Shown one piece after another: positions 6,785-59,327 of a DNA stretch of 64,000 nucleotides. The stretch is from Eukaryota sp. GEM-RC1 (lineage: Eukaryota). Numbering within the stretch: the first letter of the stretch is position 1; each line of letters starts with the position of its first letter. Made by a program: the position numbers and the translations under genes. Below the pieces are notes generated by a model that searched no databases, was not told the DNA's origin, and saw nothing but the letters and a program-made list of their open reading frames with translations. The DNA lies in NCBI GenBank assembly GCA_040285855.1, contig JAUFOQ010000003.1, positions 186,001 through 250,000 on the forward strand, written 5' to 3'.

Positions 6785-7030
6785 ACTAGAAGACATTAGT
6801 TAAAGTATCTGAACTAAACTCCACCTGACTAGAATCAAATCATTTAGCTAAAATAGAATTGAAATATCTATATATCGACCGAAACAACGCAAAAGTCAAT
6901 CTTGATAGACAAAATCCCGCATTGAACGTGTTTTAATACTCTAAACACAATTTTCCAAAAGAGACTAAAAACTGATACGCTGTGTGACACAGCAAAAGAC
7001 TGAAAAAACAAAACAATTATATCTATCAGC
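6785..7030 (-). mobile_element. Degenerate 3' relic of RLE-type non-LTR retrotransposon
   Basis: Minus strand reads FQSFAVS...LSRLTFALFRSIYRYFNSILAK*, which aligns by eye with the C-termini at 58962-59200 and 11800-12047. Confidence 0.6.
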
Positions 7031-8719: not shown

Positions 8720-8788
8720 AGATGAAGTTGATCATCATGATTGGGATGATGAAGTATAACAGTTAAACTGTCAATAAATGCTCATAAG

Positions 8789-9442
8789 CATAGTTGTGGA
8801 TACCTATGTCCCAATAAAAAGAATACCTAATACCTACCAAAATACCAAAATACCGAATACCTCAGCCTGATACCTGAATGCCCAGAAAAATGATTGAACA
8901 CATTATCGAAGCTACAATTTGTAATTTATATAACCTGTTGTACAAACATCTAACTCAACAATATACAGTGCTACAAACTATGTTACTCGTCGCTTCGTCT
9001 TGTTTTTCTTCCACTTTGGCATAGTCCAACCCTATGGTTGACAACCATTACACATGATATCCACAAGTTCTTTCTTGATAACCTTGGCTGTGACAAGCTT
9101 CCACAATGGGTTCTTAGAAGTTTGCCTAATGGTGGCAAAAGAAGTGTCCTTTTTTGGGAAATGATGATTCAAAGAGAAGGTTGGCAACAATTCAACAAAC
9201 AGTTTTAATCTGGTGTTGACTTAGAGCACTTACACTGTATCCATTTGTTCAAAAATAGAAGACTTGATTAATCCAAATGAATGTACTTAACAAAATTAAT
9301 ACATGTACTATTTAAATGTAGCGTTAGAAAGGTACTTTTGGTAGTGACAGGTATCTCCAATATGAGACATGAAAAGAACTAATACCTACCTCAATACCTA
9401 ATACATACCGAAATACCTCGAATTCAGGTATACACAACTATG
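8789..9442. mobile_element. hAT-type non-autonomous element, 654 bp
   Basis: TIRs CATAGTTGTGGATACCT / AGGTATACACAACTATG; 8-bp TSD CTCATAAG at 8781-8788 and 9443-9450; subterminal AATACC repeats. Confidence 0.9.
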
Positions 9443-11060
9443 CTCATAAGGGATCAACAACTAAACCATGAAAAATTCATTTTAAATTACAAAATACAAA
9501 AAGTCTTGATGTGATTAACAACACTCATCACGGAGACTTACATGGTCTCTTATTCCAATCAAACTATGTTTGATGGTACAACAGTAAATCCGCGTGATCA
9601 AACTTAATATGAATATGTGAAAGCATGACTGTAGTTGATTATAACCACTTAGCTACGACAGAAAAACCTACAATAGATTAGCAGGAAAGTTTGCTATTTG
9701 TAAGTATGTTAGTACTGGTGAATCAATTAGTTATTTCACCAATATGCACGTAGATTGGATCCATGTGAAAGTTTTCAGCGTAACAGATTCAATTTACCAA
9801 TTTGGCGAACCGTTTGATTTTTACTCTGTTCCGATCATAATGAATCGTCACTAAGTTGTATAAGAACAGTGGCACTGTTGATCAAGAATTTATTATGCCA
9901 TAATTAATGGATTCTACTATCTATTTTCGTCTGCTTCGGGTGCAACCCTCTACGAAAGAAAAAAAAGATTCAGTTGAATTACAATGTAAGTTTTTACCAA
10001 AGCGTTTTATAGCGGGTTTCATGGTACGAAGAAATTTGATTCAATATATCGGTGTATAGTCCAGAAATGGATCGAAACATTGGTCCTTTGTTGATGCCGT
10101 AGCTAAAAGAAATTTAATATTGGTTAAAGAAATTTGGGATGATCTCGATGTGGCAGAAGATGGTCGACGCTATTAGGTTTATGTTGGGAGACCAGCCAGC
10201 GAATTATATTGCCGAATTTCTACATCTCAAATTTCCACAATGAAAGACCCATGTAGATTCACTACACATCTAACAAAAGCAAAAGGTAAACGTGCTGCAA
10301 AAATTCAATCACAGAAGAACAAAAACTTTCACGAATGTCTTGGACATCAGCCAATCACATCAGTCAAACAAAATTTCAAAATTCTGATTTACTTTGATGA
10401 ATATGGTTTGGACACTGTTTGGAAACAGGGACTGGCAACAATTTATTGGTATTGCAATATATTGGTATTGGCAATAGTTTTTATTGATTGCAACCCGTTT
10501 TCGAATTATTTTCCAATACCAATATATTGCCAATAGTTCTTTTCTTTGTTGTAAAATGTGCCTACTTCTTGAAGATTAATTGTTCAGAATTCTTCAAGGT
10601 GTACCTTTTGAAACTTGACTTGAATATAAAAAGTGTCATAAACAGCAACACCTTTGAAACAGTTTGGGCTTCATTTCATTCACCCATGGGCAGACATGAA
10701 TGAGCCAGATGCTATTGCTGAACATTTCTTTCGTGATTGAAGGTGCTTTTGTTGTAGTTACGTTGGACTGTTTATCGGAGGATGGTAAAAGATACTCAGT
10801 TTACAAAAATTGCCTCAGCTGGTTAGGTCGCTCAACTATTTCTATGCTCATCGATTATGAGCCAAAAGTATCCAAAACGTTTGGATTAAATTGGAATTAG
10901 CACCCCATGGCGCCAAACAGTTTACTATAATGATTGGTCGAGGAACTTTGTGATTAAGGCAAATGACGGAGATGATCACTTATCAGGTATTTTAAATAGA
11001 ATATTCCAATATGACCAATAAAGTACTAATGAAGGAAGCATATTTCATTGTATCGCACTG

Positions 11061-12120
11061 TTGTTTTTGTCTCCTGAAATGTGGGAATCTTTGTTTCCTG
11101 CTCATTTGAAGGAGACTCCTTTAACAAATATTTCGTCTCTACCGTCTGCTGTATGTAAGCTGCAAAATAAATTGACAAAGGAGTTTGAACTCTTGGTCTT
11201 TAATAATCGTATTAGCTTGGCTAAAACTAATAGTCCCGAGTTCGCTACTTTTTTAATTGACCTTTGTAATAGTGGACCTTCTGGATTTATTTCTCAAATT
11301 CCTAAGATTTACGAATTACGTCTATCTGATGAAGCTTGGAAGATCAATTTGCGTCTTCGTTTGGCTATTTGGCCTGCAAATTTATTACACTATTCAACTT
11401 GCTCTTGTGGAGCTAATGGTGTTTTTCGTCATTTAATTAATTGTCGCTATTTTATTCATCTACGTGCAGTAATTCATGATGGTGTACGTGATTCTTGTTA
11501 TTCCATGTTTAATGCACATGGTTTTCACTCTAAAGTTGAACCAGTTTTGAATCATCTTTCAGAACATGAATTTACTGATCAAAAAAGAGGGGATCTACAT
11601 ACTTCGTGGCTTAAATCGAGTCAATCATTAATGGATTTTACTACAGTAGATGTATGTAACAAATCTTGTGTTAGTAGGATATTAGATTCTTATTTTAATC
11701 CACTAACAGCTGCTGAAAAGCTCAAACACTCCAAGTATGACTCTCAAGTAGAAGAATTAAACAGAAACTCATATTGCAAATTTGTCTTTCAACCTTTTGC
11801 TGTTTCTCTTTTTGGATCTATTAGTCCTGCTGGTGATCATTTTTTCAAGGATTTCGAAGAATTGTGTAAAGAAAAGAACCGTAAGTTTAGAATGGCTGAA
11901 TGGAAAAACCGTATTGTGTTTTCCATATATCGGAATATGCCTTTCTATTTCTCTAGATTAATTGAGAAATTGTACAAGTTTGGTGTGAAGGTTAATGTTG
12001 ATAAACGTAATCTTTTACCGGGTGGTGATGAAGTCGTTTGGATTTAATCTTAGTATTATTTGTTTGTTTTTACAATTTCATAGTTTGTAGGAAGGTTATC
12101 TTATTGGGTGCCGAATAATG
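11061..12120 (+). mobile_element. 5'-truncated non-LTR retrotransposon (RLE class, CRE/R2-like C-terminus: CCHC knuckle plus restriction-like endonuclease) with 3' UTR
   Basis: 328-aa ORF with LRLRL, CSCG..HLINC, HDGVRD, RGDL, DFTTVD, EKLKHSKY and FQPFAVSLFG. No RT core is present. Confidence 0.8.
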
Positions 12121-12490
12121 GTTATTGAAATTTCATTTTTATGATAATTGTTTGATAGAATGTCGAAGAAGGGAATACTATCCAAGCGGTATTTTTAAAA
12201 AAGCCCACTTTACAGTTTTTACCAAAGCGTTGAATATTACGTTGGAATTATAGCACGATAATATAATCGCGCTTATATTACTTTATATTATTACTTTTAT
12301 AGTGCGTAAATTAGAGGGCCTGCCAACCCTTAAAATTGAATGATGTTCTCCATACTGAACTGCGTAGTTCTTAAGAAAGAGTTGGAATTACAATCTAAGT
12401 TCTTAAGCGCGTCAAGCTTGAGTTCAATTAATTTAGTACGGGTCAAATTTCACATCAATATTGTGCCCACCCCTGTACAACTCATGAATC

Positions 12491-21069: not shown

Positions 21070-21864
21070 AAAATTGTTTATTCGGCACAGGGATGTTACA
21101 AAATATATTTAAATATATAAATTATTGTGTGGGCTTGTAATAGATATATTGATATTGTGTGGGCTGGCAATAAATCTATTGATATTGTCGGGCATCACAA
21201 TAAATAAATATATTTATTGACAATATTATCTGCTGCAACTTTAGTACTGGTATAATGTAAAAAAAACCGGGTTGTTCATAATCTCTGTGGTGACTTTTTA
21301 CATGAGAGAACAGATTTTGATAGCCCGATTTTGCGGCTATCCAGATGACAACATCGATGTTCTTTTTCTTGCATTCAACACATCCCCAAGGTTCAGTTCC
21401 GCGAGCAGACGCAAGGCGAACAGGTTGTGGATCAAGTAGCCGAAAGTAATGTTCAGCAACAAGTTTTGGTTTGAGAGTCATCAAGAAAAAAAAGAACAAC
21501 TAAAATTTCTTTAGCCATTTTGTTCCATGATGGTAAGATCAACTGTTTGTATCCTTGGTTACAAAATTGAGACAGTACTGTACGAATTGAAATGAAGAAT
21601 GTTCGATATTTGCATATGAAAACACAACAATTTGGCATGAAAATATATTGTCACAATATTGCAATATATTGCAATATTATTGCATATTGCGATTTTAGAC
21701 AATAAATATATTGTTGATCCAGCTGCTGACAATAAATAAATAAATAATATTTATTGCAATAAATAAAATAAAAATATATTTTTTAACATCCCTGATTCGG
21801 CACCCAATAAGGTAACCTTCCTACAAACTATGAAATTGTAAAAACAAACAAAAAATACTAAAGT
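21070..21864 (-). mobile_element. ~80-bp copy of the non-LTR element 3' UTR with 11-bp TSD, interrupted by a hAT element
   Basis: 21795-21862 is the reverse complement of ~12050-12117 with few mismatches; direct repeat CGACAACCCTA at 21059-21069 and 21865-21875. Confidence 0.75.
21088..21794. mobile_element. hAT-type non-autonomous element (707 bp) retaining a BED zinc-finger remnant
   Basis: TIRs CAGGGATGTTA / TAACATCCCTG; 8-bp TSD ATTCGGCA (21080-21087, 21795-21802); internal ORF with W.CVEC...SGYQNLFSHVKSHH. Confidence 0.92.
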
Positions 21865-22590: not shown

Positions 22591-22644
22591 ATAGTAATAA
22601 GGTTGATCATTCAGTGTAATAAATGTTTTTGCAAAAAATAATAA

Positions 22645-22790
22645 CTAACAGACACTAACTAAAGTATCTAAACTATGATCATTCTGTCCGTCACCGAACA
22701 ACTTACCTAAAATTGACTTAAAGTATCTGTGCATTGAACGAAACAACACAAACGGTGACTGACTCAACCAAAAATTTGGACATCATTCAT
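22645..22790 (-). mobile_element. 3' relic of RLE non-LTR retrotransposon
   Basis: Minus strand reads FWLSQSPFVLFRSMHRYFKSILGKLFG...*, homologous to 58962-59100 and 6785-6910. Confidence 0.6.
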
Positions 22791-27456: not shown

Positions 27457-27479
27457 CTCGACTTTTTTACAATCTACAC

Positions 27480-28157
27480 CAGGGATGTTCAAAAATAATT
27501 GCATTATGCAATTATTGCAATACTCTACAATACAGTATTGCAATAATGTATTGCAACATGATGGAGTATTGCAATTATTTATTGCATAATTTTGTCTACC
27601 TTAGAGCAAATAAACTAACATATCAATTCAATAAAAATGCAAATATTTCCTTTATTAACAGAACAAAATGACAAATTGTTAAGAACAATCAATAGAAGAC
27701 AGTCTTATGCTAACTTGAACCGTCAACAAGCTCAATCTTTTGTACAGTCACCATTTCTTTCACAGTGTTCATATTCCAATAACTTCGATTGATTGACAAG
27801 AATAGCTGAGCTTCAAGTCTTTCATGACTAAGAGCCATTCGTGATAATTCTTTTGCTATTCTAACACGACTTTGCCTTTTGCTCGGAAGTAAAAGGGGGC
27901 ATATGGTAACTGCTGAGTACAAAAGTGCCCAGAGTAAGAGTAGAACAGTGTTAGGGGTAAGAAAATTGGCACTACTTAGTAGACGTATTTTTCTACCTCC
28001 ACAACTGTATATTGTTAAATTTTCAGTATTGGAATAATGTATTGTAGAAACAATGTGTATTGCAATAATGTATTGCAGAATCATTGTGTATTGCAATAGT
28101 GTATTGTGAATCAATTTTTAGTTACAATATATTGCAATATATTTTTGAACATCCCTG
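27480..28157. mobile_element. hAT-type non-autonomous element (678 bp) with transposase C-terminal remnant
   Basis: TIRs CAGGGATGTTCAAAAAT / ATTTTTGAACATCCCTG; 8-bp TSD ATCTACAC (27472-27479, 28158-28165); internal RMALSHERLEAQLFLSINRSYW; TATTGCAAT subterminal repeats. Confidence 0.92.
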
Positions 28158-28162
28158 ATCTA

Positions 28163-28262
28163 CACTTTAGGAAACATTTAGTCTCACTGAGACTAATTCT
28201 GTACTGAGACTATTTTTGTACTGAGACTAATTCTGCACTGAGACTAAATGTTTCCTGGAGTG
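28163..28262. mobile_element. 100-bp TA-flanked MITE with internal tandem repeats
   Basis: TIRs CACTTTAGGAAACATTTAGTCTCA / TGAGACTAAATGTTTCCTGGAGTG, flanked by TA; four ACTGAGACTA units at ~17-nt spacing. Confidence 0.8.
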
Positions 28263-28827
28263 TACATAGCCAGAATAATGTTTCACCTTCTATTACTGCA
28301 CTTTATTGACAAGGTAGTTTTTACTGTGATTAAGAGTCTACATGATAACGTTAGGGCGCACCTATATTTAAAGGAATGAAAGGGAGGTTGATCAAATCGT
28401 ATGTCTGCTTCAAATATTTCTACAGTTCTCCCCTAGAGAACAGAACTCCCACGAAAAACATAATGAAGACAAGCAAAAACCGAACAATTTAATTATATCT
28501 TACGAACAAAACGAATGTTTATCACTGCTTAATTTCCAGTTTCTGATTAAAACGAAAAAATTTTTGATCTTAAGAAAACAGTCTGGTATTTAATTTATCC
28601 CTAGTGAAAATTCAAAAGGATACACTGAAAAATTTGGCTATAGTTGTTCAACTTTGACGTATCAGTGAATTAAAAAGTTACTAACGGAACAAACCAAATA
28701 AATACTAGTAAATATCAAAGTAAATAAACAACAAATCCCACAAATGATTAAACCTTAACGCTTTTCTCCAATAGAGAATATCAAAAATCTATGAGGCAGA
28801 GTGCCACGTCACCTAATTAAATAAGAC

Positions 28828-31800
28828 CTAAAACTGACGCAAACAAGACAACCTTTTTGTAGTAATTTCAGAAAATCCCTGTGCATTTTTAGTAACCTCG
28901 TAATAATCTTCAGGAAGCTCAAAAGACTCGTTTCCAGTTGCCTGATAGGCTTCAATCAATTGATTGATGAAATCACCATCATGAGTGATTATAACCAACT
29001 GTAGACTCTGAGTTCCAGTCACAGTAAGTTTAGCTAGACTATTAGCTAATCCCCTAGCATTATCCACATCTAGATTAGTAGTCGGTTCATCTAAAGTAAG
29101 GAAGTTACACCGAACTCCAAAGGTTTCAGCTAAAGCCAATCTAATAATAATACTTGCCAAAACTTTCTGACCGGCTGAACATTGTCCTTTCATATCAACA
29201 GAAACCCCATTCTGAACAAATACAACACGGTATTTGTACTTTCTTGCTTGATTTCTAGCAGTGATCTCAGTATTGGTTTCGATTTTAACAGAATCAATAT
29301 CTTTTCCATGATAAGTCTGTTGCCACAGATATCCAATCTTTTCATTTAAAATTTCTAATTTAGTTCGATGATATTCAATGATTGCAGTATTAACCAGATC
29401 CATATACTCAGTGGTGTCCTTGATTCCAGCATCTACAGCCTCGAAATCAACACAAACTTGTTTAACCAAATGGTCTAAATTTTCAAAATCTCTTCCACAC
29501 AACTGTTTCTGTGCATTGCTCATTGATTGTTTTTGAGCAGCTTTTCGTCCTTCTAAATGAGATATCTTATTTAAATAATTCTGACGAAGATTTTCTTTTT
29601 CTTTGTGTCTTTGTTTAATTTCTGACAATTGAGTAGCAAGTTTCCATTCAGGAGACGTTTCCAATGATTGGATTTGAACAACGAGTTCATTCTGAGCTTC
29701 ATCATTTTGTAAAAGTTGAATATTCATTAAAATGACATTTTCTAAATTTTGGAGACGACCGAGAGCTTCTTTTTCCTTAGCTAATTGATCTTTTTGTTCA
29801 TTAAAACGATTCTCTAGAGTTTCATACTCAGATTTAATCTGATCAACTCTGTCCACAGTTTCTTTGATTTCAATCAATTCTGATCGTCTGGAACCTATCT
29901 TTTCCAAAAGTGATTTAATATTTTGAATAATAGGAGTCAACGACTTTACAGACTCGTTCAAGGTAGAAATCTCAGTTTTTAAACTTGAAGCGAGACTATT
30001 AAATCGAGATTCTACTCTGGATTTTTCCTCAATTAGAGATTGATGGGGTTTCTCAACAGAAACTTTCTTTAACTTTAAATCTTGTAAGGTACTTTGGGTT
30101 TCCAAGTAATCGTTGTTTGACATTGGCCAGGTCTGCAACTTGATTTTTCAAATCTGAGACTAAATTTAATTTAACAGATCTCTCATTCATTAAGGAAAGA
30201 TGTCGTTCTTGGAAGTGACTCAGGGTAGATTCCAAGTCAGTTTTAGTAGATTCTAACTCAGAAATTGAAGCTGAAATTACTTCTGGTGGGTCAAACAGTC
30301 CTTGTTCTTGGTCAATAGTTGACTGGAGGTTAGACAATTGCTGATTAATGGTGCTGATTTTCTTGAAATTGAATTTGATTTCCTCCAATGAACGTTTGCG
30401 ACTGTCACATGTTTTTAACTCTCGTAGTACCCGCTCCTTTTCCTGATTGATTGAATCAACAGCGTCATCCAAAGATGATTGCTGGTCAGTGAGCTCCTGA
30501 AATTTAACATTAATAGAAGAAAGTTCAGTAACATCCTTTTGATACTTAAGGTAAAGTTCTTTAATTGAGTTCAGTTTTTTTAAATTTTCAGTTAACTTCT
30601 CCTCTTCGCCGACTAACTTTCCCACAATCTGTTCCGCTTCTACTTTCCGTTCACTAAGTTCTTCTAGGAAATCAGGTAGTCTTTCTTTAGTGAGTTTGGA
30701 TTTACAAAGAGAACAAGAGGAGGAAGTACAAGAATCATCATAGAACTCATCAAATGACGTGATAAGAGCTCTTTTGACTGTAATCTTTCGAGAAACCTGA
30801 GCTAGAGTCTCCTCACTTGATGAGATTTCAGCCAACACATCCTGAGAACCGTAGGTCTGCTCATATGTTTTAATATCTTTTGAATTCTCTTAAAACTTTT
30901 ACGAAGTGTCTTATGATTGGTATTAATCAACCTAATCTCAGCTTCCTTATCTGCTAACTGATACTGAACTTGATCTAAGGACCGCTGTAGACTCTGTCTG
31001 GAACCTTCAACAGTTTCAAGTTGAGTATTAAGCTGAGATACAGAGGATAAGTTATCTAAAGTAGTCAAATTAGAAAGGTCGCTTTCAGTGAAGGTTTGAT
31101 TGATGACACGTTGCAGATGATCAGTTTCCCGATTTAAAACAGCAATCTCAGCTTTGTAATTGGCAAGTTTGTTGGATAATGAATGAGCCTTAGACAAGAG
31201 CTCTTTCTTTTCCACAAGAGACTTTTGAATCAGATTAATCTCCCCATGAAGATTCTTCATCTTTTCTTCCTGTTTTAAATGTTTCTGTAACTCAATATCT
31301 GCCATAGTATACTCTGACTCAGCTGAAGAAAGTTGAGACAAAGAGAACCTCCTGAAGCTAATTTGGCTTCGAACTGGGGAATAGCACTATTGAGAGAGGA
31401 CATTTGCTTGTCAATTTGTTCAGATTCGCGTTTAATAGAGATAATCTTTGAGTCAATTTCTCTTAAACTAGCATAATACCGAGTCTGTTGAGATTCCATC
31501 AACGCCTGTTGTTCGTACAACTTCTTCTCCAAAACTTCTTTGTGATTAACTGCTGAAGAAAGGGTAGACGCTATGAACTGATTGAACATTGAGAAATCGT
31601 CTTCAAATGAGTGGCTGGAAGGAACATAGTTCTTTAATACGGATGGAATAGAGATACCAAAAGTACTGAGGGAAACACTTGACTTAATTAACTCAACTTC
31701 AAGATCAACAATTTGATTGGTACGTTCAGTGATTGCTCCAATTGACGCTGCAACGTTATCATACATCTTCTTTGAGTCTAGATAACGTTTCCGCACGTGA

Positions 31801-32797
31801 TCAATTCCAGTAGAAAGTTTTTGAATCAATTCTTCCTTTTGAATAATATCATTAGGCAACGTAGTCAACTTTTCAGTTAACTTTGGAATAGTTGCTCCAG
31901 AAATCACCGTAACATCCTTTAACCTGTCTTGTTCTTTCATTAAATGTTTAATTTTCTCCTCCAGTCGTTGGGCTTCTCGAGAGAAAGTCTCGGCAATTTC
32001 TAAATTGTCTGCTAATTTAATAACTTGTTCTTCTATTTCTTGTAGTCCTCGTGTTAATCCTTGTAATTCTTCAATATTCTTCTTAATTTCAGCAGCACCA
32101 GTGTCAGAAAACTCTTTCAAAGTAGCAAATCTCTTTTGTCTTTCCACTAATTCAGCTCTAGACCCTTCAATCTCAAGTTTCTTATCTTTTAAAAATTTTG
32201 TATGATCTTTTAAAACCCCTAGAGCTTGAGTATACTTGTGACTAGCAAATATCTTGTCAAACAATTCCTGAACCTTCTTGTCATCACCAAAAGGCCACAA
32301 GTTATCTTCCTGATGGCAAAGATTACATAATCCAAGAGCGCTTTGTTCAAACCCAATTTCTTGAGAATCACTTCGTTTACATCACTATTATTGGAGTTAG
32401 AGACCAAGGACTGACCTGCTTCTTGGTTTGTAAGGGTTGACTCCATTTTAGAGAAGGAATATTTGTTCCCACGAAGGACAACTTTCATGGACCTAGTGAT
32501 ACCAAAGAGAGAGTCAGGCTGGCGGACATCACGAAGCCAGACGACTATCTTGGCTTGGTTTTCAGTCTGGTTGGAGAGGCGAGGGTCGTTGACAAAGCGT
32601 TGTCCCTTCATTGAGTTTGGAGGAGGATCTCCTGTACAGACATAGCGGAGAGATTCAATGATTGTGGTCTTTCCGGAGCCATTTGCTCCCTTGATCATAG
32701 TTATAGGATATCGAAACTGGATAGATTGGGAAGTATTATGGATAGGGGGTTGAAAGCTTCTCACACCAGCCACATCCACGGAGTGAAGAGCGTACAT
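28828..32797 (-). CDS. RAD50: RAD50 (MRN complex ATPase), split by ~4 single-base indels
   Basis: GVRSF, Walker A GANGSGKTTIIESL, F(C)HQEDNLWP, long coiled coil with CSLC hook, CSAGQKVLASIIIRLALAETF, LDEPTTNLD, QLVIITHD. Confidence 0.95.
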
Positions 32798-32878
32798 GAA
32801 GAAACTGGCCGAGATGAAGGGGAAAAATGCCGGGAAATAAAGTTGCCGGCCTTTTGTTTCACCCTCCACACACCCCAA

Positions 32879-35800
32879 ATGAGTCTGGATGTTTACGTGT
32901 CTAAGTTGAACAGCAAAGATTCATCCGCCAAGAGAACAGGATACTTCTCTGAAATCTGTGATCTTCTGTCTGTAGAAGCAAACAGACACAAACTGGATTC
33001 TTACACACTCTCATCTGCTCCTTTAAACTGGCAAGTCGTTATTGAACAATTAGCCACCTTTCTCACTTCCATTTCCAAAACTGAGTCCAAACTTCTCCAA
33101 GTGAATTCCAAATTCGCCAAGGACCTTTTCCCCATCCTCCTAGACAACAGTCTTCGATTCCTCAACTCCCTTGACCTCCTTCTTGCTCTAGGCGAAAGGT
33201 TTACTTTCCCCTCAGTTCAATCCGTCTATCTATCTCTCTACGCAGACCTCTTCTCCTGCAAGGACTTCGCTCACTTCTTCTTCAAGTATCAGGTCTATGA
33301 GACTTATGTGTTACCTCTTATAGATGATCTCTTGGTCTCCTTCAACTCTACTACTGGTCAAAGCTCTTCTTTTATAAAGTTGGTGACGAGGTTTTTGATG
33401 GCTGAAACTGCACCTCATGAACTGGCTTTGTGTAAGTTTAAATATTTGACAACTATTTGGAACAGTATTACAGCTCATCATTTGGAAATTTTAAAATTAT
33501 TTGATTGCTGTTTCGAAAAGTTGTCCAATCTGCGCCCCCACAAACTTTTTGAGCCCAGTTTGTTCGTATTTTTTCCCTTTTTTATCGAATGTTTCCGTAA
33601 CTGTAACTCACCAGGTGTAATAGAAGTCCTTTGTAAAATTATAACATCAATACTGAACTCTCTCAATCACTCAAATTTGATTGATTGTGATGAGCTCAAG
33701 TGTTTCCTATTTTCTCTTCAACGATCCCTACTATTTAAATTGGGAAATGGAACTGATCGTAGGACTGTTTTTCAGTCAAGTTTTCCTCATCTTTTGGCTA
33801 CGTGTTGTTCTTTAATGGGTCTTGTAAAACAAGAACCTGTTCCTTCTAGGAAAAGAACTTCTTCACAGAAATCACCTCATAATACCTCTCAAATTAATAC
33901 TCAGATGAATTTTGTGATTGAAGTTGTTGATCTGTTGAACGATTCGAGTGTTATACCTGACAAAAAACGTGATATTTTGACGTTTTTGCAGATATTTCAC
34001 TCACAGTTCTACTCTCCTTCTGTTTCAGTTCCATCATTGATTCCTTCACTAGTAGGCAATGGTTCTAATTCTGGACTTATTTCATACGTTGTGATTGCAT
34101 TGAGCTCTATATTAGATGCCACTACGACGCCTTCTTTTTCAGAGCAGAATTACAATGAAATTTTCCTCCTAATTAAAGACAATTTGTTTAAAAATTATGC
34201 ATTGACAGGAATTTTTCTTTCTCTGTTGACTTCTCTTTTAAAGAAATATCCCTTTACTGAAGGTTTTGCTTTTCTACATTCTAGTATTTTCGAGTTTTTG
34301 ACCTTTTTTGAAACGACCCCCAATGACGTCAGCAATCATCTTGATGGATTTCTTTCCTCTTTAAATTTGATTTTAAAACGTTTCAGGTTCAACTCAAGTG
34401 ATGAGAATCTGAGATTAACTGTTTTAAAATTCTGTTGTAATTTAGGTCTGAATGATTTAAAGATAAGTACATTACCAGAACTAGCTCATACCGTCTCTTC
34501 TTTGTGTATTTCAAAGTTAAATCGCGAAGACGAAGTTTTGATTGATTACGTGACCAACAGTCATCTGATTGATTGCCGAGATTTCCTGTGCCATCACGTA
34601 AAGCATCTTTTTGATACTGTAGAATCTATCCCTCTGAATGATTGTTGTCGTCTTTTGCTAGTTGTTTTACTAGAACATGACCAACTTCTGTCCTTGGGTG
34701 CTATCAATTACCATTTTAGTCAGCTTATTTTAAAACTGGTGGAATTTGTCTTGAACAATTTTACTGACGTTTACTCTGAAATGAATGGAATTATGAGTTT
34801 TTTGCCCAATAATTTCAATTTAAGCAAGAACTTGGCTAGTGATGTATTAGGTTCATTTTCGTCTTCTTATGAGGCCTTTCTTGAGAAGATTTGTAACCAA
34901 TCATTTTCCATAGATGTATTAGAATTGGCTATCAATTTCAATTTCAAAATTTTTGGTCAAATTTCGATTTTGCCCGAACTAGGTACATTAATTACTCATG
35001 GAAATGAAATCATCAACTTTATGTTAGATAACTCTTTCAGCTCGTCCTATCTATGTTCCATTTTCAACGCTATTACTACTCAAAAACTATACCAACAATT
35101 CCCTTGTCAAATAGTCGAAATGTTATGTCAGTTATGTCGTAAGAAATCAATCTATATGAAGCTACGGTCGATTTCTCTGTCGTTAACGCGAGTGTTTTCT
35201 TCATGTTTTACTGTTTTATCTCAGAATTGCCATCTTGAAGACAATTTGAATTGTTTAACAGTATTATTTCACTTCATTTTTGAAGAAGACTTTCTGACAT
35301 CCATACAAGATTACGTTTCCGCTGAATCCTTGACTTTTCATAGCATATTATTTGAATTTCTGATAAGTCTATCTCACAAGCAACTCTCACAGTTCCACCT
35401 CAACAATGACCAATTGATTCGATTATTCCAATTTGTTCAAGTATATCAGACAATTACAGATATATCTCCTGATGTGTTTCCTAAACTCATCGATTGTATT
35501 TGTTCAGCATTAAGTTGTGCAGCCGCTTTATTATCAAACAAAGTGAACCCTTTAATCAATCTATTTTTAGGTACAACATGTGAATTATTATCTCCATGGT
35601 TTGAATCTTTAGAATTTACTGTGGATAATTTATTTAATTTTTCTATTATAGTAGACTTCTTGTCTACTGCTCTCACTGAAACACCATGGTTTTCAATGTT
35701 TGTAAGACCTTTTGTCAAATTTTTAGTTTTCCTTTCAAGATTCAAAGCTTCAGTGGGTGATATTTTATCTATTCTGGTTCTTTTGGTCAACTTCAAAGTT

Positions 35801-49189: not shown

Positions 49190-49846
49190 TATTGTTTCTA
49201 TAGATTATGGGAAGTACTAGACTTATTACGATATAGATTATGACTGCTGTCGCAACTATGGCTATAGGAACTGTGTAATGATGTAATTTCTTCTTTTCTA
49301 CGTAGGACTGATTTTCTTCGCTATCCATTTTAGTATAGCATTTTTATTTCTTTTGCGATAAATCTTGTGCAACTAGTTGACCTTCTAGAGATTGAAGATT
49401 TGGATTATTAACCATATTTGTTGGTGGTACACTAACTTCCCAAACAGGTCTAAATACATTTTCTCCTATTTGTCCTCCACCTATCTGAGTGTAATTATAT
49501 GCAGGATCATTAGGTCTAACAGCTCCTCTTCTATTTTGTTCACGTCTATTAATAAGATTCATATTGAATTGTAATCTTAGATGAATACCAGTAATTTGTA
49601 TAATTTCATTTTTTCTTATACCTGGTCTATCACCTACATTGTGAACTAGAGGTATCAATCCAAGACTATCCCAATAATAAGTTTGTCTAGTTAATCCCAA
49701 TACATCATCATCACCACCTTTTGAGAATCCACTTAGTCTATACTTTTGTTGAAAACCTTTAGGTAATAGATCATTGAATACTTGTTGACCTTGAGGTAAC
49801 TCATCTTCTGCAATATTAGGTAAAGGATTATCATAATTAATTAAGT
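49190..49846 (-). other. Endogenous virus-like fragment: partial capsid-like ORF (open from ~49850 to stop at 49344) followed 15 bp later by a small TM-protein ORF (ATG 49328)
   Basis: N/P/G/Q-rich open frame with strongly A/T-ending codons; LIPLVHNVGDRPGIRKNEIIQITGIHLRLQF resembles by eye the G...R.G..I....I..R motif of CRESS-DNA virus jelly-roll capsids. The 49190 boundary is approximate. Confidence 0.5.
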
Positions 49847-50250
49847 CTAAAGGATTTCAACAAAAGTATAGACTAAGTGGATTCTCAAAAGGTGGTGATG
49901 ATGATGTATTGGGATTAACTAGACAAACTTATTATTGGGATAGTCTTGGATTGATACCTCTAGTTCACAATGTAGGTGATAGACCAGGTATAAGAAAAAT
50001 GAAATTATACAAATTACTGGTATTCATCTAAGATTACAATTCAATATGAATCTTATTAATAGACGTGAACAAAATAGAAGAGGAGCTGTTAGACCTAATG
50101 ATCCTGCATATAATTACACTCAGATAGGTGGAGGACAAATAGGAGAAAATGTATTTAGACCTGTTTGGGAAGTTAGTGTACCACCAACAAATATGGTTAA
50201 TAATCCAAATCTTCAATCTCTAGAAGGTCAACTAGTTGCACAAGATTTAT
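49358..50250. repeat. Near-perfect inverted repeat: arms 49358-49762 and 49847-50250 (~405 bp), 84-bp spacer
   Basis: Direct comparison of the arms showed one substitution near the inner end and one A-run length difference; identical peptides appear in ORFs 49392+/50034- and 49344-/50046+. Confidence 0.97.
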
Positions 50251-50354
50251 ATGGATGAGTTCATTTTCGTCATTTGATCTCTACATGTCAAAACAGGAGG
50301 AAATCAACACTAAATGCTGCCTACTGGTTAAGGTAGACTAAAAAGTTTGTAAAA
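50231..50354 (-). ncRNA. Candidate Fanzor omega-RNA: scaffold 50354-50251 plus guide starting at 50250
   Basis: Lies directly 3' of the Fanzor stop. Minus-strand stems GTCTAC/GTAGGC, CAGCAT/GTGTTG and TTGATTTC/GAGATCAA rely on G-U pairs that form only on this strand. It ends ...ACTCATCCAT at the repeat boundary. Confidence 0.55.
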
Positions 50355-53300
50355 CTAAGAACCAGACTGATTGATCAAAACGTCCACATTTTCTTCACTC
50401 TCATCTTCTGTAACGACGTCCTTTTCCTCACTCTCCTCAGTCTCAAGACATTGTACACAACTAATCTCAGAAGTCATTTGTTCAGATTGGCTTCTGCTGA
50501 GAATAGTTGGCCTGGGTAGCCAGCTAACTTTGCCTTCATGATTTCCATAATGTTGATTCCTGAATTGAAATCCCTGTCCCACATAGTAGTACAATACTTA
50601 CACTTGAGCAAACCCCACGGTTTCACTTCAGCACGTTTCTCAAATTCCTCTTCAGCTTTTCTCCACTCTTCTTGGAAATCCATACTGTTTTTCTTACAGT
50701 ACCACTTCAGCCACTTCTTTTTCCGTTTCTTCTTTCGATGGATGTTCGGATCTGGACATGTGATTCCATGATTGTGGGTATTTTCACCAAATATTCCGTC
50801 CTTAGCACACTTAGAGCAACACTTACTAGTTCGGTACTCATCCACTAGAAAAATCTTGAACCCTGCTTTTCTAAATAGCTTCCTCATTGCTTTTCCTTTA
50901 ATTGTCGGAACAAAACCTTTCGAGCGAAAAGCAGAGTCGTTCCAATCACCATAACCGATGAGAACTTTGTTTGGTTCACCAAATTTTTTCTTGAAACGGT
51001 TGATCATTTGGTCTTCTCCCCGTTTTTTGTTGGAGTACAATTGAAGTTGCCTCTTTCTAAACCAAGTAGTACTATACAAATTCCAAGTCCTCAAGTTAAA
51101 CAGTTCTTTGTGGTATATGTACTCACAAAACTCTCCACGAACACAAGATTGTTTTTGTCCTTGATTGACAGCAGCAGAGAAGAGATTCATTGCATCTTTA
51201 CCAGTTACATCAAGACAGGTAGTCGATTCGAGCTTTCGTTGTTCTGTTTTACGGTATTTTTTGAATTTGGAGTCGTAGTTACGTTCTCCTTGAGTATAAA
51301 CAAACTTCTTAAACTTGTCTTTTTCTCTCAGCTTAACATCTTTAGAGACTTGAACTTCAGGTTTGGGTGTTCTGTGGTTTCTTCTGTTTTTAATGACACG
51401 TCCTGATGGCTTTCGTGGCCTTGTGGTTGCATCTTCTTTGATTCCTTCTTTTCCAATTCCTCAGCAGACTTTTCTGTGACAGCAACAGTTGGGGCATACT
51501 TATTTGGATCAATGCCCACAAGAGTTCTTTCTCTGAGATTTAATTCCTCAATATCGGCATCGGTTAAATCATCCAGATACTTTTCTTCAGTATGCAATTG
51601 AATTGTAGAATATTTTTTCCTACTAAATCGTTTCTTTGTAAAACAAGTGAAACTGAAACACCATCAGTTTGGAGTGAGTTTTTGAAGCAGTAATTTGCCT
51701 TAGTAGATTTGGAAGCATCTAGCATCTCTGTTAAGTAGGGAATCCCAAATTTCTGTTCCATATTGGACAGAACGACTTGTGTAAAATTTCTTTGTTTGTT
51801 TTTTGAAAATTTTCTCTCCAGCAATCTTGGATTCTAAATCGTGAGCTTCAGACATGGCTTCTTTTTTGAAAAAATTACCTAAAACAACTTTAGTGTCGAC
51901 TCTAAAATGCTGTGGAATGACAGTGTCGGTAAAAGGAAGACAATTTGGAATACTGCAAGGATTTCCTCTTTCATCAGTTTCAGCTCTAACAAGCCTTGTT
52001 ATAAAAAATTGCATGAGGCAACAACTTCCTTAGATGGACCTTTTGAGAATAGAATAAGTTTTTATCTTTGACAAATATTGAAGTAAAATGACTTTCCAGA
52101 TAGTCTTTAAAATTTCTACAAATACTTCTTTCAGGATTTTCAAATAAGTCAAAATTGATTTCAGAAATTTTACAATCAATAATTTTTTCTCTCAATTGTT
52201 TGAACTGGGTCAACAATTCTTGTTTTTCAATCACATGGTCTTTTAACTCTGTTATTCTCGATTTTTTATTCAAACAAATGTTCATGGCACGGAAAATGTA
52301 TTCATGAAAGTGCATTTTCAAATGAGTAGCATAATTTGCACGTACATGTCTTGAATGGTATTTCAAAATTTGATCCATTAATTTGTAGGAAGGAGCTAGG
52401 AAATCGTAATCATCCTCAAAAACTTGAGGTTGTAAATATGTCCATGATGCGACATTTTGTTCAACGGAGATCATTTCGAGAATTGGCAAGTAATAGTCCA
52501 AACATAGGTGAGCCATCCTACATCTCATTGAGACTAGATCACTAGACACAGTACCTCTTTTCGATGTTCTTTCAACAAGTTCCACAGTTTCCGAATCTTC
52601 CATTTCGATCTCTTCTTCTTCCTGTTCAATTTTGTTGTACAATACTTGCATCTTTTCATCACAACCTTGTTTTTCATAGTAGTGTTCCAATTCACTTCTT
52701 TTTGACAAACAGACCACCATAAAGACTCCAGAACCTTGTTTTTTCTTGAAGAATGTCCAAGTTGGGTAATTCGTGAGGTTTTTCATTTATTTGACGATCA
52801 TATTCATCAATAAAGAATAACTTTAAGAGCATTCTACCTCTGGTATTGATTCTACTAAAATTCTTTCCAATTCTGCGAAATTTATTAAGATCAGATTGTT
52901 GATCATGGGGATTGGGATCTTTGAGAATTTGACGAAGATCACATTTGACAGATTTAACAGCAGGAAGAAACAACATTGTTTGCAATTTTTTATCTAAGAA
53001 GAAGTCTACTAAGTGACGACATAATTCAACATCATTAATACAATAACAAGCAAGAGACGTACGGTCTTCATCTGAACCATTCCACAATCGTTCAATTTCT
53101 TTCAACTTAGCTAAAGTAGTTTGATTTCTTAACATTTCATAACCTTGACTCTTGTACTTAGTTTTAAGACGAACTTTCTCATCTTCGGATAAAAGACCCA
53201 ATTTTTGAATGTGTGAACCTTCAAACAGATATGAAACAACATTTTCCAATGATCTACCTCCGGGAAACGTATAAGTAGAACGTAAGAGTTGATACAAATC

Positions 53301-53850
53301 CAGAGACCAAATAGAAGCAAGATTTGATTTTTTAGCCCATCTTTGAAAAACCCACAGACAACAAACAGAACCTTCACCCAGTTTAATTAAGAAATTGATT
53401 TCCACACCAAGCAGTTGACATCGACGAACAATAAACGGCAAATCAAATGAATTTAAATTGTAGCCACAAATGAGTTTTGGCTTTTCCAATTTCAGGAGAT
53501 TGATAAATTCAACCAACATTTCCTTTTCATTTTCAAAATGAAGAACTTCAGCATTGAGATCATCAGTAAGAACTGGCTTAGAAGTAAACAAGAAACTCCT
53601 TGACTCTTGTAAAGGATGTTCAAAAGTATTTACAAGTTGGATTCCAATCTGGATGATTGAATCATTTTCAAAGTCAGGTTTCAACTGATCTGGTTCTTCA
53701 GACAATTCAGAGATTGGTTTGGCTTCTGAATCGAGTTCATCGTCTGCAGCATCTTTTTTCTCCGAAGTTTTAGGGAGTTTTACAGTATGCAATTCTTTTG
53801 CCGAAAGAGATTCAATGTCCAGAAAAGATATAACTCCTCAGCTTCTAGAA
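50355..53850 (-). CDS. Fanzor1-type RNA-guided nuclease with N-terminal PolB-type DEDDy 3'-5' exonuclease domain (~1150 aa after correcting ~7-8 indels; intact gene versus pseudogene unresolved)
   Basis: Exo I FLDIES (53808-53819), Exo II GYNLNSFD, Exo III YCIND. Then KSVKCDL, HLKMHF, IPQHFRVDT, QTDGVSVS, RuvC-I GIDPN (D at 51508-51510), FRKRQL, IGYGDW, RuvC-II VDEYRTSKCCSKC (E at 50837-50839), KCKYC, RuvC-III WDRDFNSGINI (D at 50570-50572), RPTILSR. Confidence 0.9.
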
Positions 53851-54071
53851 ACTGCAAAGGAGATTCGGACAGTACAGTTTTCTTCTTATGAGCAGGTTCT
53901 GTACCAAGACTTGAAAGACTCAATCTTGTACCGATGGGATCAGATTTGGGATCAGATTGTGGACCTGGAATGGATTCCACATCACCATCAGACGTAAGAT
54001 CAATTTTGAACTGCAGTCTACAATCAAAACTGACAGAAATTTGCAAAAAACGACACTTCAATAAAATTTGA

Positions 54072-54102: not shown

Positions 54103-55366
54103 CGATCCACTGAATTTTACAAGGAGGCAAGTTTGGGGGCTGGAAAGCAGTGTGTTGCCCTGGTGGTTCTATCACCATGCTGGGCATGTAAAAATGATAG
54201 GCCTGACTGCCAAATACAACACACATACTCCCATAAAAAACCCTCGACTTCGAAAAAATGAAAAATTTGGATTGAATTGGATCAATGACCAAAAATGCCT
54301 TCCTTGGGGTTTTGATTGAACAATGATGCCTTTGAATAGCATATTGCCGCCCGGTCCCACCCAGGCTGTATGGATACAAGATATCTAAAGAAGTTGCTTC
54401 TGTAGAATTCCACCTGATTTGATAGGACGACTTTCCCACCAAAAAGAGGCCTCTCATAACCGTCGAATCAATGAACATCGACATGTGAGCAGAAAATGGA
54501 CCATTTTGTGGGTTGTTGGTATTTATAGATGTGTCTATGTCATGTCAGTCAAGACATTTATTGACGATTGTCTTCATTTTTCACTTTTCAGTGTCCTCTA
54601 CATGGACAATTGTCATGAATTTGCTCCTTTCAGTTGTTCTTTCAACAATTCACATCTTTCTTTTGATTTCACATTCATATATCACAACCCTTCATGATTG
54701 CTTTGGTACAGAATCTTCCATAAACTTCTCTCAACGACTCCTCTCTTCCTCGGTTCCCTTATCAGACTTCTACTCTGTTGTTGTAAATGTAGAATTGGAC
54801 GACACAATTTGGTCTCAATGGCTTCCATGGAGACGTTTTGCTGGAGGAAGGAGATACCAAGAACATTAAACGAGCCCTCCCAAGTCTCAGTCTTTCATCT
54901 TACATCACTCAGTCAACTCTCGTCTTTCCGATGCATCAACAGACATGTAACATTCCCTTTTCAATATAGATTTATCTTCTCTTAGTGTTACCACTCTTGC
55001 TATGTATCAATCTCATACTACAAGTCAGAAGATACTCCAGAATCATAGTCCATTGTGATGCTTATTTATCTTCATCAATAAACCAAACAACTTTTCTACT
55101 TTTTGTGCTAACTTCTTCAAATGGACAAAACAAGAGAAAAAGTTCATTACAATTCCTCTCCATTGGGATCCCTAATAGCCCAGAAATCAAAAGATTCACG
55201 TTTTGGACCTTTAATTCTTGCAATCATTTCACGTTTCTTGTGAGTCGGAACGTCCCAAGCGGTGAGAACAGTCATTTGATCTCCATGTGTGACTCAGCCA
55301 CGGCAAATAAAAGCTATGAATATGACAAATTACTGGGCGTATTTCTGTTGGAACTAATAGTTCTTA

Positions 55367-56013
55367 TCGTCGAGGTCCTAATACAAGCAAGGTCCTAATA
55401 CAAGCGTAGTAGAGGGTATGCTTGTATTGTTTCACAAAATAAACTCACAGATTTCTTTTATAAAATACTGTTTTCTATATATAAAACCGCCGAGATTCAT
55501 ATTGGAATTATATATAGATCTCATTTACTAGTTACAAAAGCACTTATCCATTACTAATTGAAAAGACTAGAACACCTGATGAACAAGTCTGTAACGCAAG
55601 AATAGCTAAACTTCTAGGATACAACGATACAATGATGTGTCTCAACTTTTACGGCAATTTATATTGGTTCTATAGACACTAGTTTTAGTTATGCATTTGA
55701 TCTCAAGGTGGTCGATAATTTACGAGATTAACGAAAACCTTGTTTGACCAAGAAATTGTAGACGTGACTCATTTTGCTGTTTATTTTGGTTCGATTAATC
55801 TAGATGTCGGTCAGGATTGATCGACATACTGGAAAAGATAACTGATTGACGTTATTAAGTATCCATCTCAATGTTAGTGATCTTGTTATGAATATTATTT
55901 GATTATACAAAGGGAGATTTCGAGGACCCTAATACAAGCAAGTTTCCAATACAAGCATAGTAAAGGGTATGCTTGTATATTATTTAAGGTTGCTTGTATT
56001 GGGACCCTGACGA
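55367..56013. mobile_element. Non-autonomous TIR element (~647 bp), TA-flanked
   Basis: TCGTCGAGGTCCTAATACAAGCAA versus TTGCTTGTATTGGGACCCTGACGA; repeated AATACAAGC and AGGGTATGCTTGTAT subterminal units. Confidence 0.8.
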
Positions 56014-57611
56014 TATTGGTCAAATTTAGATTCTAAATGATATATCGTTGAGAAACACTGGAATACATACTAGTACTACAGAACATACATGTATCGGAAG
56101 ACGTGAACACTGTATCTTGAAGACATTGTACATATTAGCACACCACCGCTGTGTCTTTTCAAAAGCACCGTTTAAAGGTGGTAAAACAATAATGCAATAC
56201 ATAAGTTAGCCATATCATTTTGTTTTAAATTCTCCAACAGAATGAATCATCTCAGATTACAAAAGAATAAACGCATTAACTGGTTATTTAAGAGCTTTCT
56301 TGGAAGTGTAGTATTTATATCCATCAATTATGATGTATTGAATGATTTTCGGGAACAAATACATGTACTGTCGTTGGAATTCTCTCAAATAATCTTTAGT
56401 CTCATTAACGACTATCAGTATGAGTACAGTAAATGTAGATGGATATTGATATGGGAACGACGCAATAGTATAGGTAGTGTAAATGCTCATTGTAATAGTT
56501 TTACAATGTTGATTGTAAGCACTATTGTAATACAGATCAAATAACACCAATGACACGTCACTATACGTGGCAACACCCCATATATTTGTTCGCAGTTCTA
56601 GAAACCTTTTCACCACTACAAAAACATTTGTTGCTTAAGATTGAATGGAATATCAAACGTCAATTTTTGAAACAATTTTTAATTCTGTTCTGACCTAGGC
56701 TTTTCAATGAAAGAGTCTACTGCACATACCAGTAGTGGCCACAGTTTAGGTTAATTACAATTAATGGAATCATAAAAAATTTGAGCGCATTCATATTCTG
56801 GGTAGATTAATTCACAGTAATTCATTAATCTAGATTTGTTTAATAGGCAAAAAACGGAATGGTGATTCTCTCAAACTTATTTACATTTGAGTGCTGGAAA
56901 GTTTACCAGTGGAATCCAATTCCATGAAGGTCTTCCAGCACATTCAGAAGCAATCATCTTACGCAGGAAATCTTAAAATGCAAAAAGTAGTAAGTCTTAG
57001 TTTAATGGACTAGTACATTGCTCAAAGAAGACACATAATCAGAAAGTCTAGCACAAATCATTTCTTTGTTAGATTCATCTATTTCAGCTATCAGAGTGGT
57101 AGAGTATAACGTCACCAAGAACATACTAGTAGAACAATGCTATATTTGTGATCAACGAACTCCAGGTTTTTACGTTCGAGCTCACATAAAATAATATTCT
57201 TCGGGGTTACTATAGTGGTACATTCGTGAACAAATCTCGAAGGGATGAACGTGATAAAAATCCTTCAAACGAAACGTCTTTTCAGTAAAGATTTCCTTAA
57301 TGTTATTTGTATTCCAAAGAAAGGGCTTGTTGCTTAAGAATGAATTGAATGTCAACAGCAGTTTTCGAAACAATGTCATAGAAAAGTTCGATAACAGTTC
57401 AAGGAAGTTCCAATCCTACAGAGAGGATGTGCATTGACAAAGTAGCTCGAAATAGCAGAACTAAACAGAATGTAGATGGCACAAAGAAAACCTCTCCGTT
57501 AAACATGCAAAATAGTGCTAGATTGATGAACTAGTAACAATGAAACAGTGGAAGTACTGTTCAAAAGAGGAAAGTTCGCATTTCATACCCATTTCTTCAA
57601 CTACTAATCGA

Positions 57612-58427
57612 ATGAACATCTTCTTCTTGTCCATCGACCCTGAAGAGGCTGCCAGAGACATGTGTGATCCCCATGTTGTTAAAATGACATTGGAATCCAC
57701 GCAACTTCTCTTCACTTGCCATCACCTTGTTTCTACTTCCACTGAGTGGATTTTAAGATTCCAATCAGAAACTGGTAAAGAACCATACAAAGCCTCGCAT
57801 CAGAAACATGGTTGTCAGATATGGCTTCAACAAGGAAGTGCCAACTACGAGTGGTTATGTCGGCATGCGGTGGCAATGGTTGCTGAGTACAAAAGAAGGT
57901 ATGGAGACAAACCAATGTCTGTTGAACCTCTTCTTCAATGGCTTCAAAACAACGTTCCAGACAATTTACCAAGAACTAAACAATTGACAGAGATCTACTT
58001 GGCAATGCCCGAAGAATGTAAGTATTACTGGTATGTCGAATCAACTGAATCATACGAGAATATGTTAAATCGGACAGTACAATCTTATAGATTGTACTAT
58101 CTATTATTCAAGTCCAGATTTGCTCGCTACTATTATACTAAAGTGCCGTACTGGCTGGAAGAAACATTGTTCTATATCCAAAGTCTTTCAGATTCTGACT
58201 ATTTGTCCCTAATTCCCCAAGAATCTCCAATGAGGAAGGTTATCTTAAAAAAACCACCGAAAGTTCCCAAGGGAATTAGGTCAAGGGTTGCAAGAAAAAG
58301 AACAAAGAGTATAAACGCTGATAAACAGATCACAGCTCCCATTGTAAAAGATGAACCTTATCCGGACGTTAAGTTCAGAAGAATAACAAGATCCATGACA
58401 GAGAGTCCGCTGCATAATCTATTGTGA
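57612..58427 (+). CDS. Pyrimidine-dimer DNA glycosylase family (T4 endonuclease V-like) protein with basic C-terminal tail
   Basis: MNIFFLSIDPEEAARDMCDPHVVKMTLESTQLL, YKASHQKHGCQIW, NYEWL, EYKRRYG, LAMPEECK and VQSYRLYY match the motif pattern of the phage, bacterial and giant-virus family. Confidence 0.8.
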   Translation: MNIFFLSIDPEEAARDMCDPHVVKMTLESTQLLFTCHHLVSTSTEWILRFQSETGKEPYKASHQKHGCQIWLQQGSANYEWLCRHAVAMVAEYKRRYGDKPMSVEPLLQWLQNNVPDNLPRTKQLTEIYLAMPEECKYYWYVESTESYENMLNRTVQSYRLYYLLFKSRFARYYYTKVPYWLEETLFYIQSLSDSDYLSLIPQESPMRKVILKKPPKVPKGIRSRVARKRTKSINADKQITAPIVKDEPYPDVKFRRITRSMTESPLHNLL

Positions 58428-58889: not shown

Positions 58890-59215
58890 ATCAAAAAAAA
58901 AAAACGGATTTATGTGCGGAGAAAAACACATAATAAGATAAGTACAAATAAATAAACACTATTAAACCACATTATCAAACGAACTACCTAATTCCGAAAA
59001 GTAGTTGCCTCCAAACAACTTGGACAAAATGGAATCAACATATCTATACATAGACCTAAAAATCGAAAAAGTAAATTTACTCTTCCAGTACGATCTGTTA
59101 AACTTCTTGCCAAATTCTGAACACAAATTTTCAAATAAACTTAAAAACTCCTTGGTAGAAGAACCGAAATTTCCGTACAATGAAACTGCAAAAGGCTGAA
59201 AGACGATACAGTATC
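58890..59215 (-). mobile_element. 5'-truncated RLE non-LTR retrotransposon relic with 3' UTR
   Basis: VFQPFAVSLYGNFG...YWKSKFTFSIFRSMYRY, homologous to the end of ORF 11061-12047. Confidence 0.75.
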
Positions 59216-59327
59216 TAATTTTAAATATATATATACATGTCGGAGTAATTCAGTTTTCCTAAGACTGGAATTGAATAAAACAAATTTATAATCTAAAAAA
59301 GAATGCAGGATAATACATACAAGGAAA

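Follow-up and report, generated by a model that had tools for sequence, protein, structure and literature searches.

A capsid-like palindrome close behind a Fanzor1 gene: a probable repair scar rather than an acquired guide

The window analysed here is the whole of a 64,000-nucleotide stretch of DNA from Eukaryota sp. GEM-RC1, with positions counted from its first letter. It is eukaryotic sequence with a GC content of about 36%; introns are short, and the genes are those usual for a protist, among them INO80-like and Rad50-like genes, a PI3K/FATC kinase, a phosphatidylserine synthase and a cyclophilin. Between the cyclophilin gene and a gene for a Fanzor nuclease lies a large inverted repeat that carries a capsid-like reading frame (Table 1).

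Table 1. Features around the inverted repeat, in window coordinates
Feature	Position	Strand	Basis or remark
Cyclophilin gene (host), short introns	48577..49160	-	PF00160, E 2e-43; introns read from sequence
Left flank, not capsid; contains TTTTGCG	49190..49357	-	codon score, frame reading
Open frame, 170 codons, 166 capsid-like	49347..49856	-	ESM Atlas and motif placement
Palindrome arm 1	49358..49762	-	capsid-like frame on minus strand, open through arm 1 and loop
Fold-back junction	49755..49856		7-bp inverted microhomology, 49756-49762 with 49847-49853
Loop, single copy, 84 nt	49763..49846	-	in frame with arm 1
Palindrome arm 2	49847..50250	+	same capsid end base as arm 1; adjoins Fanzor 3' region
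Candidate omega-RNA region, 104 nt	50251..50354	-	Fanzor stop to palindrome
Fanzor1 nuclease part, frameshifted	50355..52760	-	motifs; PF07282 above cut-off
PolB-type 3'-5' exonuclease domain	52731..53825	-	PF03104, E 8e-20
2A-like motif DVESIPGP	53960..53989	-	relatives have canonical asparagine

The original prediction had named the nuclease a Fanzor, and its motifs together with PF07282 confirm it as Fanzor1. The RuvC triad of the DP[GN] type with its alternative glutamate, the zinc finger, the RD and the TDG are all present (TDG at 51668, the DPN of RuvC-I at 51516, the glutamate of RuvC-II at 50842 and the RD of RuvC-III at 50575). The neighbour gene is a real Fanzor1 fused to a PolB exonuclease and to a motif, DVESIPGP, that we take to be 2A-like. 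In intact relatives the PolB exonuclease is likewise fused to the Fanzor, with both parts in one protein in P0001-P0003, and the 2A-like form DxExNPGP, N-terminal in this family, occurs in 18 of the 37 relatives listed. A tree of 23 rows, among them seven of the fetched proteins and 15 of the 80 viral loci considered below, groups the window Fanzor with named Fanzor-PolB fusions (support 98/95). Within the size range of 575-2000 aa, the best relatives are proteins of 1,181-1,560 aa from Eukaryota sp. TZLM3-RCL, which align along window positions 54000-50400. As there are 45 of these proteins in four clusters, they represent a multi-copy family in that organism; three of the clusters join a PolB exonuclease to the nuclease and one joins a Ulp1 protease.

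The nuclease frame is not intact as assembled. Frameshift-aware comparison with P0023 and P0020 gives eight frameshifts and no internal stop over about 1,250 codons, with three of the eight at six-base homopolymers, and the frameshifts may be uncorrected long-read errors more than signs of decay. The RuvC-III frame ends at 50474, and a frameshift near 50517 leads to an RP..L.R motif and an acidic tail ending at 50355. The stop previously placed at this position is credible, since motif and tail resemble those of the relatives. Pfam found no transposase domain in the family (window 50355-54000 and proteins P0001-P0039), and between 53900 and 64000 there is no terminal inverted repeat above shuffled background. 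A direct repeat of 18-20 nt, at 50269 and 55271, was considered as an element end and rejected because shuffled sequences score equally well. A metagenome scan for the window Fanzor gave 19 loci, with best segments 24-35% identical, none near enough to reveal the element end. No description of a fusion of Fanzor1, 2A-like motif and PolB exonuclease was found in excerpts of PMC10432273, PMC10711439, PMC3627910, PMC10530073, PMC11423790 and bioRxiv 2024.09.03.611062, and it is absent from the titles and abstracts among the matches listed for Fanzor and 2A peptides.

The insert, at 49358-50250, is a near-perfect palindrome of 893 nt, with arms of 405 and 404 nt around the 84-nt loop and a predicted fold of -721 kcal/mol with 430 pairs. 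The arms differ at two places only, by an indel in a homopolymer and by a single mismatch next to the loop, and the outer ~395 bp hold no substitution at all, implying that the event is recent or that the arms are being homogenised. The single arm-to-arm substitution, 49755 against 49854, stands directly past the 7-bp inverted microhomology. This is where a lone substitution would be expected if a 3' end had paired imperfectly and then been extended, and we infer that the microhomology primed copying, with arm 1 and the loop as the original single-stranded fragment and arm 2 as its fold-back copy. The marks of a fold-back inverted insertion are found together here: a single-copy loop bounded by microhomology, a common template end base and unrelated flanks.

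What the palindrome encodes is foreign to the host. Third positions are G or C in 15 of 166 codons of the capsid-like frame, and third-position GC is 0.10 compared with 0.34 in 12 host ORFs, so the insert is foreign coding DNA. In both ESM Atlas searches clusters of Cressdnaviricota rank first, with feature-level scores of 0.90-0.92; the best cluster (0.92) has 184 of 256 features in common with the fragment, and 17-42% of the members of the top named clusters carry the Gemini_coat annotation. The Atlas recognition scores for the fragment are low (1351 and 1589). When aligned by HH with a 28-member cluster of capsid-like ORFs, which were drawn from 127 Rep-motif contigs, the fragment falls at the cluster's conserved QG...R.GN.I motif, with a score that 4 of 40 shuffles equal. 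The matching motif is followed by 72-198 residues (median 172) in 20 of the 28 CRESS-like capsid ORFs and by 86 in the fragment, implying that the capsid gene is truncated at the arm end. The fragment is thus likely to be the middle of a CRESS-virus capsid of the geminivirus/TNV type, ending about 85 residues short of the usual C-terminus. Language-model features, with low recognition, and codon bias lead us to regard the CRESS-type assignment with good confidence, and the arms, earlier described as virus-like, are probably viral.

Conventional searches identified no relative of this fragment. No capsid homologue was found in Pfam, PHROGs, NCBIfam or PDB sequences, nor in a set of 5.8 billion proteins at near or greater length; HMMER against 1.84 billion representative proteins gave only two matches, both short and to bacterial-type BTRD1 repeat proteins, and HMMER profiles from 12 ORF clusters of the 127 Rep-motif contigs gave no match. 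These two proteins, one IMG/VR match of 12 residues and phage matches at E 2-5 were all set aside, either as chance similarity or as short repeats whose scores had added up. A real virus as the source of the target was likewise not found in the two protein sets or in IMG/VR, and with no detectable relative the virus family of the insert cannot be named. A single-sequence AlphaFold prediction of the fragment reaches a pLDDT of 32. A Pfam scan of the 39 longer window ORFs revealed no Rep family.

The limits of the insert are equally sharp. The capsid frame stops 4 codons beyond the left junction and 2 codons beyond the right, and third-position GC, 15/166 inside, rises to 19 of 56 codons past the left junction (p=5e-5) and to 11 of 35 past the right (p=1e-3). 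Early stops and a GC jump at both junctions imply that the capsid gene was cut at one base on both arms, and a foreign codon signature with sharp edges is set into host sequence. The junction beside the Fanzor does read on the minus strand as first described, at the outer end of the inverted repeat. Two further statements of the original prediction hold: a search of the window beyond the other end of the element found no continuation of the viral sequence, and the arrangement is not that of an element simply inserted into an endogenous virus. Neither flank continues the capsid.

The flank to the left of arm 1 holds a 46-codon hydrophobic frame, with an ATG at 49328, that is in frame with the cyclophilin start; its other frames either contain stops or are the different hydrophobic frame. 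Codon use in the 46-codon frame is unlike that of the host, an equally low score being found in 1 of 124 host windows, and no viral relative of it was found. The frame across 49190-49357 may represent another fragment that was captured, or it may supply the host cyclophilin gene with a membrane anchor.

These limits also decide what can be made of the supposed target site. A perfect match had been reported at 49358, preceded by TTTTGCG, the supposed TAM, and the match is real, in that the 20-mer by the junction recurs once in the window, at 49358 (+), after TTTTGCG. As an independent target it fails, being the mirror arm of the same palindrome. Since the capsid ends at 49358, where the frame stops and the GC shifts, TTTTGCG is not capsid DNA and lies outside the sequence for which it was to serve as TAM. 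An acquired spacer calls for a TAM by its target; here the sole target seen is the mirror arm and the bases that precede it are not capsid.

Whether the junction coincides with the guide depends on where the omega-RNA ends. A Fanzor1 guide consists of the 14-15 nt that follow the conserved end, and in S. punctatus the guides vary (PMC10432273; this and other papers are cited from excerpts); the terminal bases of the omega-RNA form a stem (PMC10711439, excerpts). As a proxy we used 80 viral Fanzor1 loci, of which 77 could be parsed and 71 have a sharp shared end. These 71 relatives carry 68 different 15-nt flanks, so that a Fanzor guide is whatever adjoins the element. Their stop-to-end distance is 31-131 nt, a range that includes the 104 nt at the window junction. 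The distance from the RD motif to the end, however, is 204-287 nt in the relatives compared with 325 nt to the window junction, 38 nt beyond the range, and the last 7 nt, which pair at long range in 71/71 relatives (median 0.91, cut-off 0.3), reach 0.17 at 50251. Among 80 nearby positions the terminal-stem test is passed by 18, with the highest scores near 50298, 50279 and 50261, and so it cannot itself place the element end. The two proxy tests, RD-to-end and terminal stem, tend to speak against a scaffold end at the junction. They show no more than a tendency because the viral relatives, with 28-49% protein identity in their best segments, are distant and also partly redundant, with many near-duplicates.

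The several stems earlier seen in the 104 nt are no better than chance, for the region folds at -18.2 kcal/mol with a z of -1.08, and 33 of 200 shuffles do as well. A covariance model of the omega-RNA, built from 30 viral Fanzor1 loci with compensatory changes at 15 of 22 pairs, has its best match in the window elsewhere (E 0.79) and nothing significant at the locus; Rfam gave no relevant match. A scaffold running into the left flank was also considered, on an empty-site model that joins the Fanzor 3' region to that flank, and is unsupported, its fold being like that of shuffles and random flanks.

We conclude that the locus is more likely a scar left by DNA repair than a guide that was acquired. 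The explanation we favour, and hold to be reasonably probable, is that one single-stranded viral fragment folded back and was then patched into a chromosome break behind the Fanzor1. The steps are read from the shape of the palindrome. A viral fragment of ~500 nt would have been present in the nucleus as a single strand, its 3' end would have annealed, across 84 nt, to an inverted microhomology of 7-10 nt, and a polymerase would have copied the remainder of the fragment to its very end, giving the second arm; such folding back, with copying as far as the template reaches, yields two arms with one end point. The hairpin would then have been ligated into a chromosome break that had the Fanzor 3' region on one side and the cyclophilin upstream DNA on the other, and unfolded by replication. 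That the break was made by the Fanzor element's own activity is a speculative possibility. The foreign insert begins only 104 nt behind the Fanzor stop, and such proximity suggests that it is linked to the element, which counts against plain capture.

Precedents exist for the main steps. In yeast, inversions arise in transformed ssDNA that contains an inverted microhomology of 8 nt, and are inserted at breaks (PMC11724301, excerpts). The window locus resembles these fold-back insertions in its imperfect 7-10-nt inverted microhomology, its loop of tens of bases, its mirror copy and its unrelated flanks; it differs in being natural, about 900 nt long rather than tens of bases, derived from a viral donor, found in a protist and recognised from its shape. 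CRESS elements are present in the genomes of Entamoeba and Giardia (Kinsella 2020, PMC7493932, excerpts), a parallel for a CRESS-like gene in a protist chromosome and for a possible small-RNA response. Unlike those elements, the window insert is a capsid fragment alone, palindromic, with no Rep nearby among the 39 ORFs scanned. The inverted-repeat integrations of tomato pararetroviruses (PMC9868043, excerpts) likewise consist of rearranged viral DNA in a host genome, although virus class and host are different and our locus is known from its sequence.

A quite different meaning would attach to the locus if capture had occurred exactly at the end of the omega-RNA scaffold. The guide of this Fanzor copy would then pair with the capsid gene of the virus, and the nuclease could cut a double-stranded replicative form, whether reprogrammed by accident or under selection. 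The stop-to-junction distance and the known position of Fanzor guides would allow this, all three RuvC motifs are present, and the frameshifts without nonsense codons look more like read errors than decay. We nevertheless regard it as rather improbable. The junction fails the terminal-stem test and exceeds the RD-to-end range, and the target match follows trivially from the palindrome. The viral context upstream of the target has been lost, so that cleavage would need a chance TAM, a TAM beside the target being guaranteed by normal transposition and not by capture; were TTTTGCG a working TAM, arm 1 would itself be cut, and the arms bear no scar. SpuFz1 does not cut targeted ssDNA (PMC10432273, excerpts), so immunity would require a double-stranded target, and a single locus demonstrates no acquisition system. 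The proposal that this Fanzor is programmed against a virus is thus unsupported, its probability lowered but not abolished, because the relatives used in the end tests are distant. Its extended form, in which a viral hairpin at the guide position of an active Fanzor1 aims the nuclease at a small DNA virus while the locus also yields an antiviral hairpin RNA of 400 bp, is doubtful to the same degree. Hairpin RNA could also matter independently of any guide, in a manner compatible with fold-back capture: read-through transcripts from the Fanzor would be predicted to give a hairpin of ~400 bp, a possible source of siRNAs and hence of heritable defence against the virus. The predicted fold of the repeat would suit this role, tomato inverted-repeat viral integrations give antiviral-type siRNAs (PMC9868043, excerpts) and Entamoeba small RNAs map to CRESS elements (PMC7493932, excerpts); as the locus bears no sign of age or selection, we think such a function unlikely.

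The palindrome might instead be an artefact or have arisen by an older route. Fold-backs with microhomology are a known artefact of amplification and of long-read sequencing, and a fold-back molecule of a virus in the sample could have been joined to host DNA in chimeric reads. The essentially identical arms and an assembly whose frameshift pattern looks error-prone are consistent with this. Such an origin would, however, require two separate host-virus junctions, with flanks that are different and plausible, and a plain read fold-back would have mirrored the flank as well, which is not the case; we consider it quite improbable. Highly improbable is the transposition of the Fanzor into an existing endogenous viral copy, followed by recombination or deletion that made the palindrome and removed the other half. 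This would be the normal route by which a Fanzor gains a viral guide, and the relatives are multi-copy. It predicts, however, that the capsid continues on one side of the target, and neither flank does so; the window sequence upstream of the element contains no similar stretch, and a second event would have to cut arm 1 at the same base.

If fold-back capture is accepted, the locus shows clearly, and in nature, how a single-stranded virus fragment is caught as a snap-back palindrome. The insert hints at an undescribed CRESS-like virus of a protist host, and the locus also exposes a Fanzor1 family that carries a 2A-like motif and a PolB exonuclease. In comparison with the Fanzor1/omega-RNA systems SpuFz1 and GtFz1 (Saito 2023, PMC10432273; Yoon 2023, PMC10711439; excerpts), the window Fanzor has the same TDG, DPN, E-x-R-TS, zinc finger and RD, a non-coding stretch of ~100 nt past the stop and a guide expected from the 3' flank. 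It differs from them in its fusion to the 2A-like motif and PolB exonuclease (1,300-1,500 aa in relatives), in having no terminal inverted repeat or transposase within the window and in being frameshifted in the assembly.

Should the guide after all lie on the virus, the locus would show the accidental turning of a eukaryotic RNA-guided nuclease against a virus and, within a eukaryote, the natural beginning of a path that leads from transposon homing to CRISPR-like immunity. No report of a Fanzor guide turned against a virus by accident appears in the titles and abstract openings among the matches listed. In CRISPR spacer acquisition foreign DNA is placed beside an RNA-guided nuclease locus. 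The window locus shares that adjacency; unlike CRISPR, it has no array, repeat, integrase or motif-directed selection, and consists of one 900-nt palindrome.

Finally, several minor observations may be recorded. The giant-virus Fanzor1 elements (L002-L081) have in common a sharply defined 3' end, ...CAAGGGTGTAAA, together with an omega-RNA fold that shows covariation, and are ready material for the analysis of guides and TAMs. The Rad50-like gene at 28831-32920 (-) is spread across several overlapping frames, pointing to short introns or assembly indels. An ORF at 57522-58427 (+) resembles a pyrimidine-dimer DNA glycosylase (PF03013, E 3e-4, below cut-off), a family that occurs in phages and giant viruses. 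Four short coding fragments, at 58962-59249, 11784-11975, 6792-6974 and 22597-22776, are mutually related and resemble the C-terminal endonuclease end of non-LTR retrotransposons. A MITE-like element of ~650 nt occupies 55365-56015, bounded by terminal inverted repeats of 26 nt and containing direct repeats, and further small inverted-repeat elements and short tandem arrays are found at 8781-9450, at 27463-28267 and at 12050-12130 with 21781-21861. A stretch of 37 nt at 57355-57391 matches the cyclophilin exon-intron edge at 49024-49060, 8 kb away, at 86%, as a relic duplication or by chance; it overlaps a degenerate 49-nt repeat at 56628-56676 and 57327-57374.
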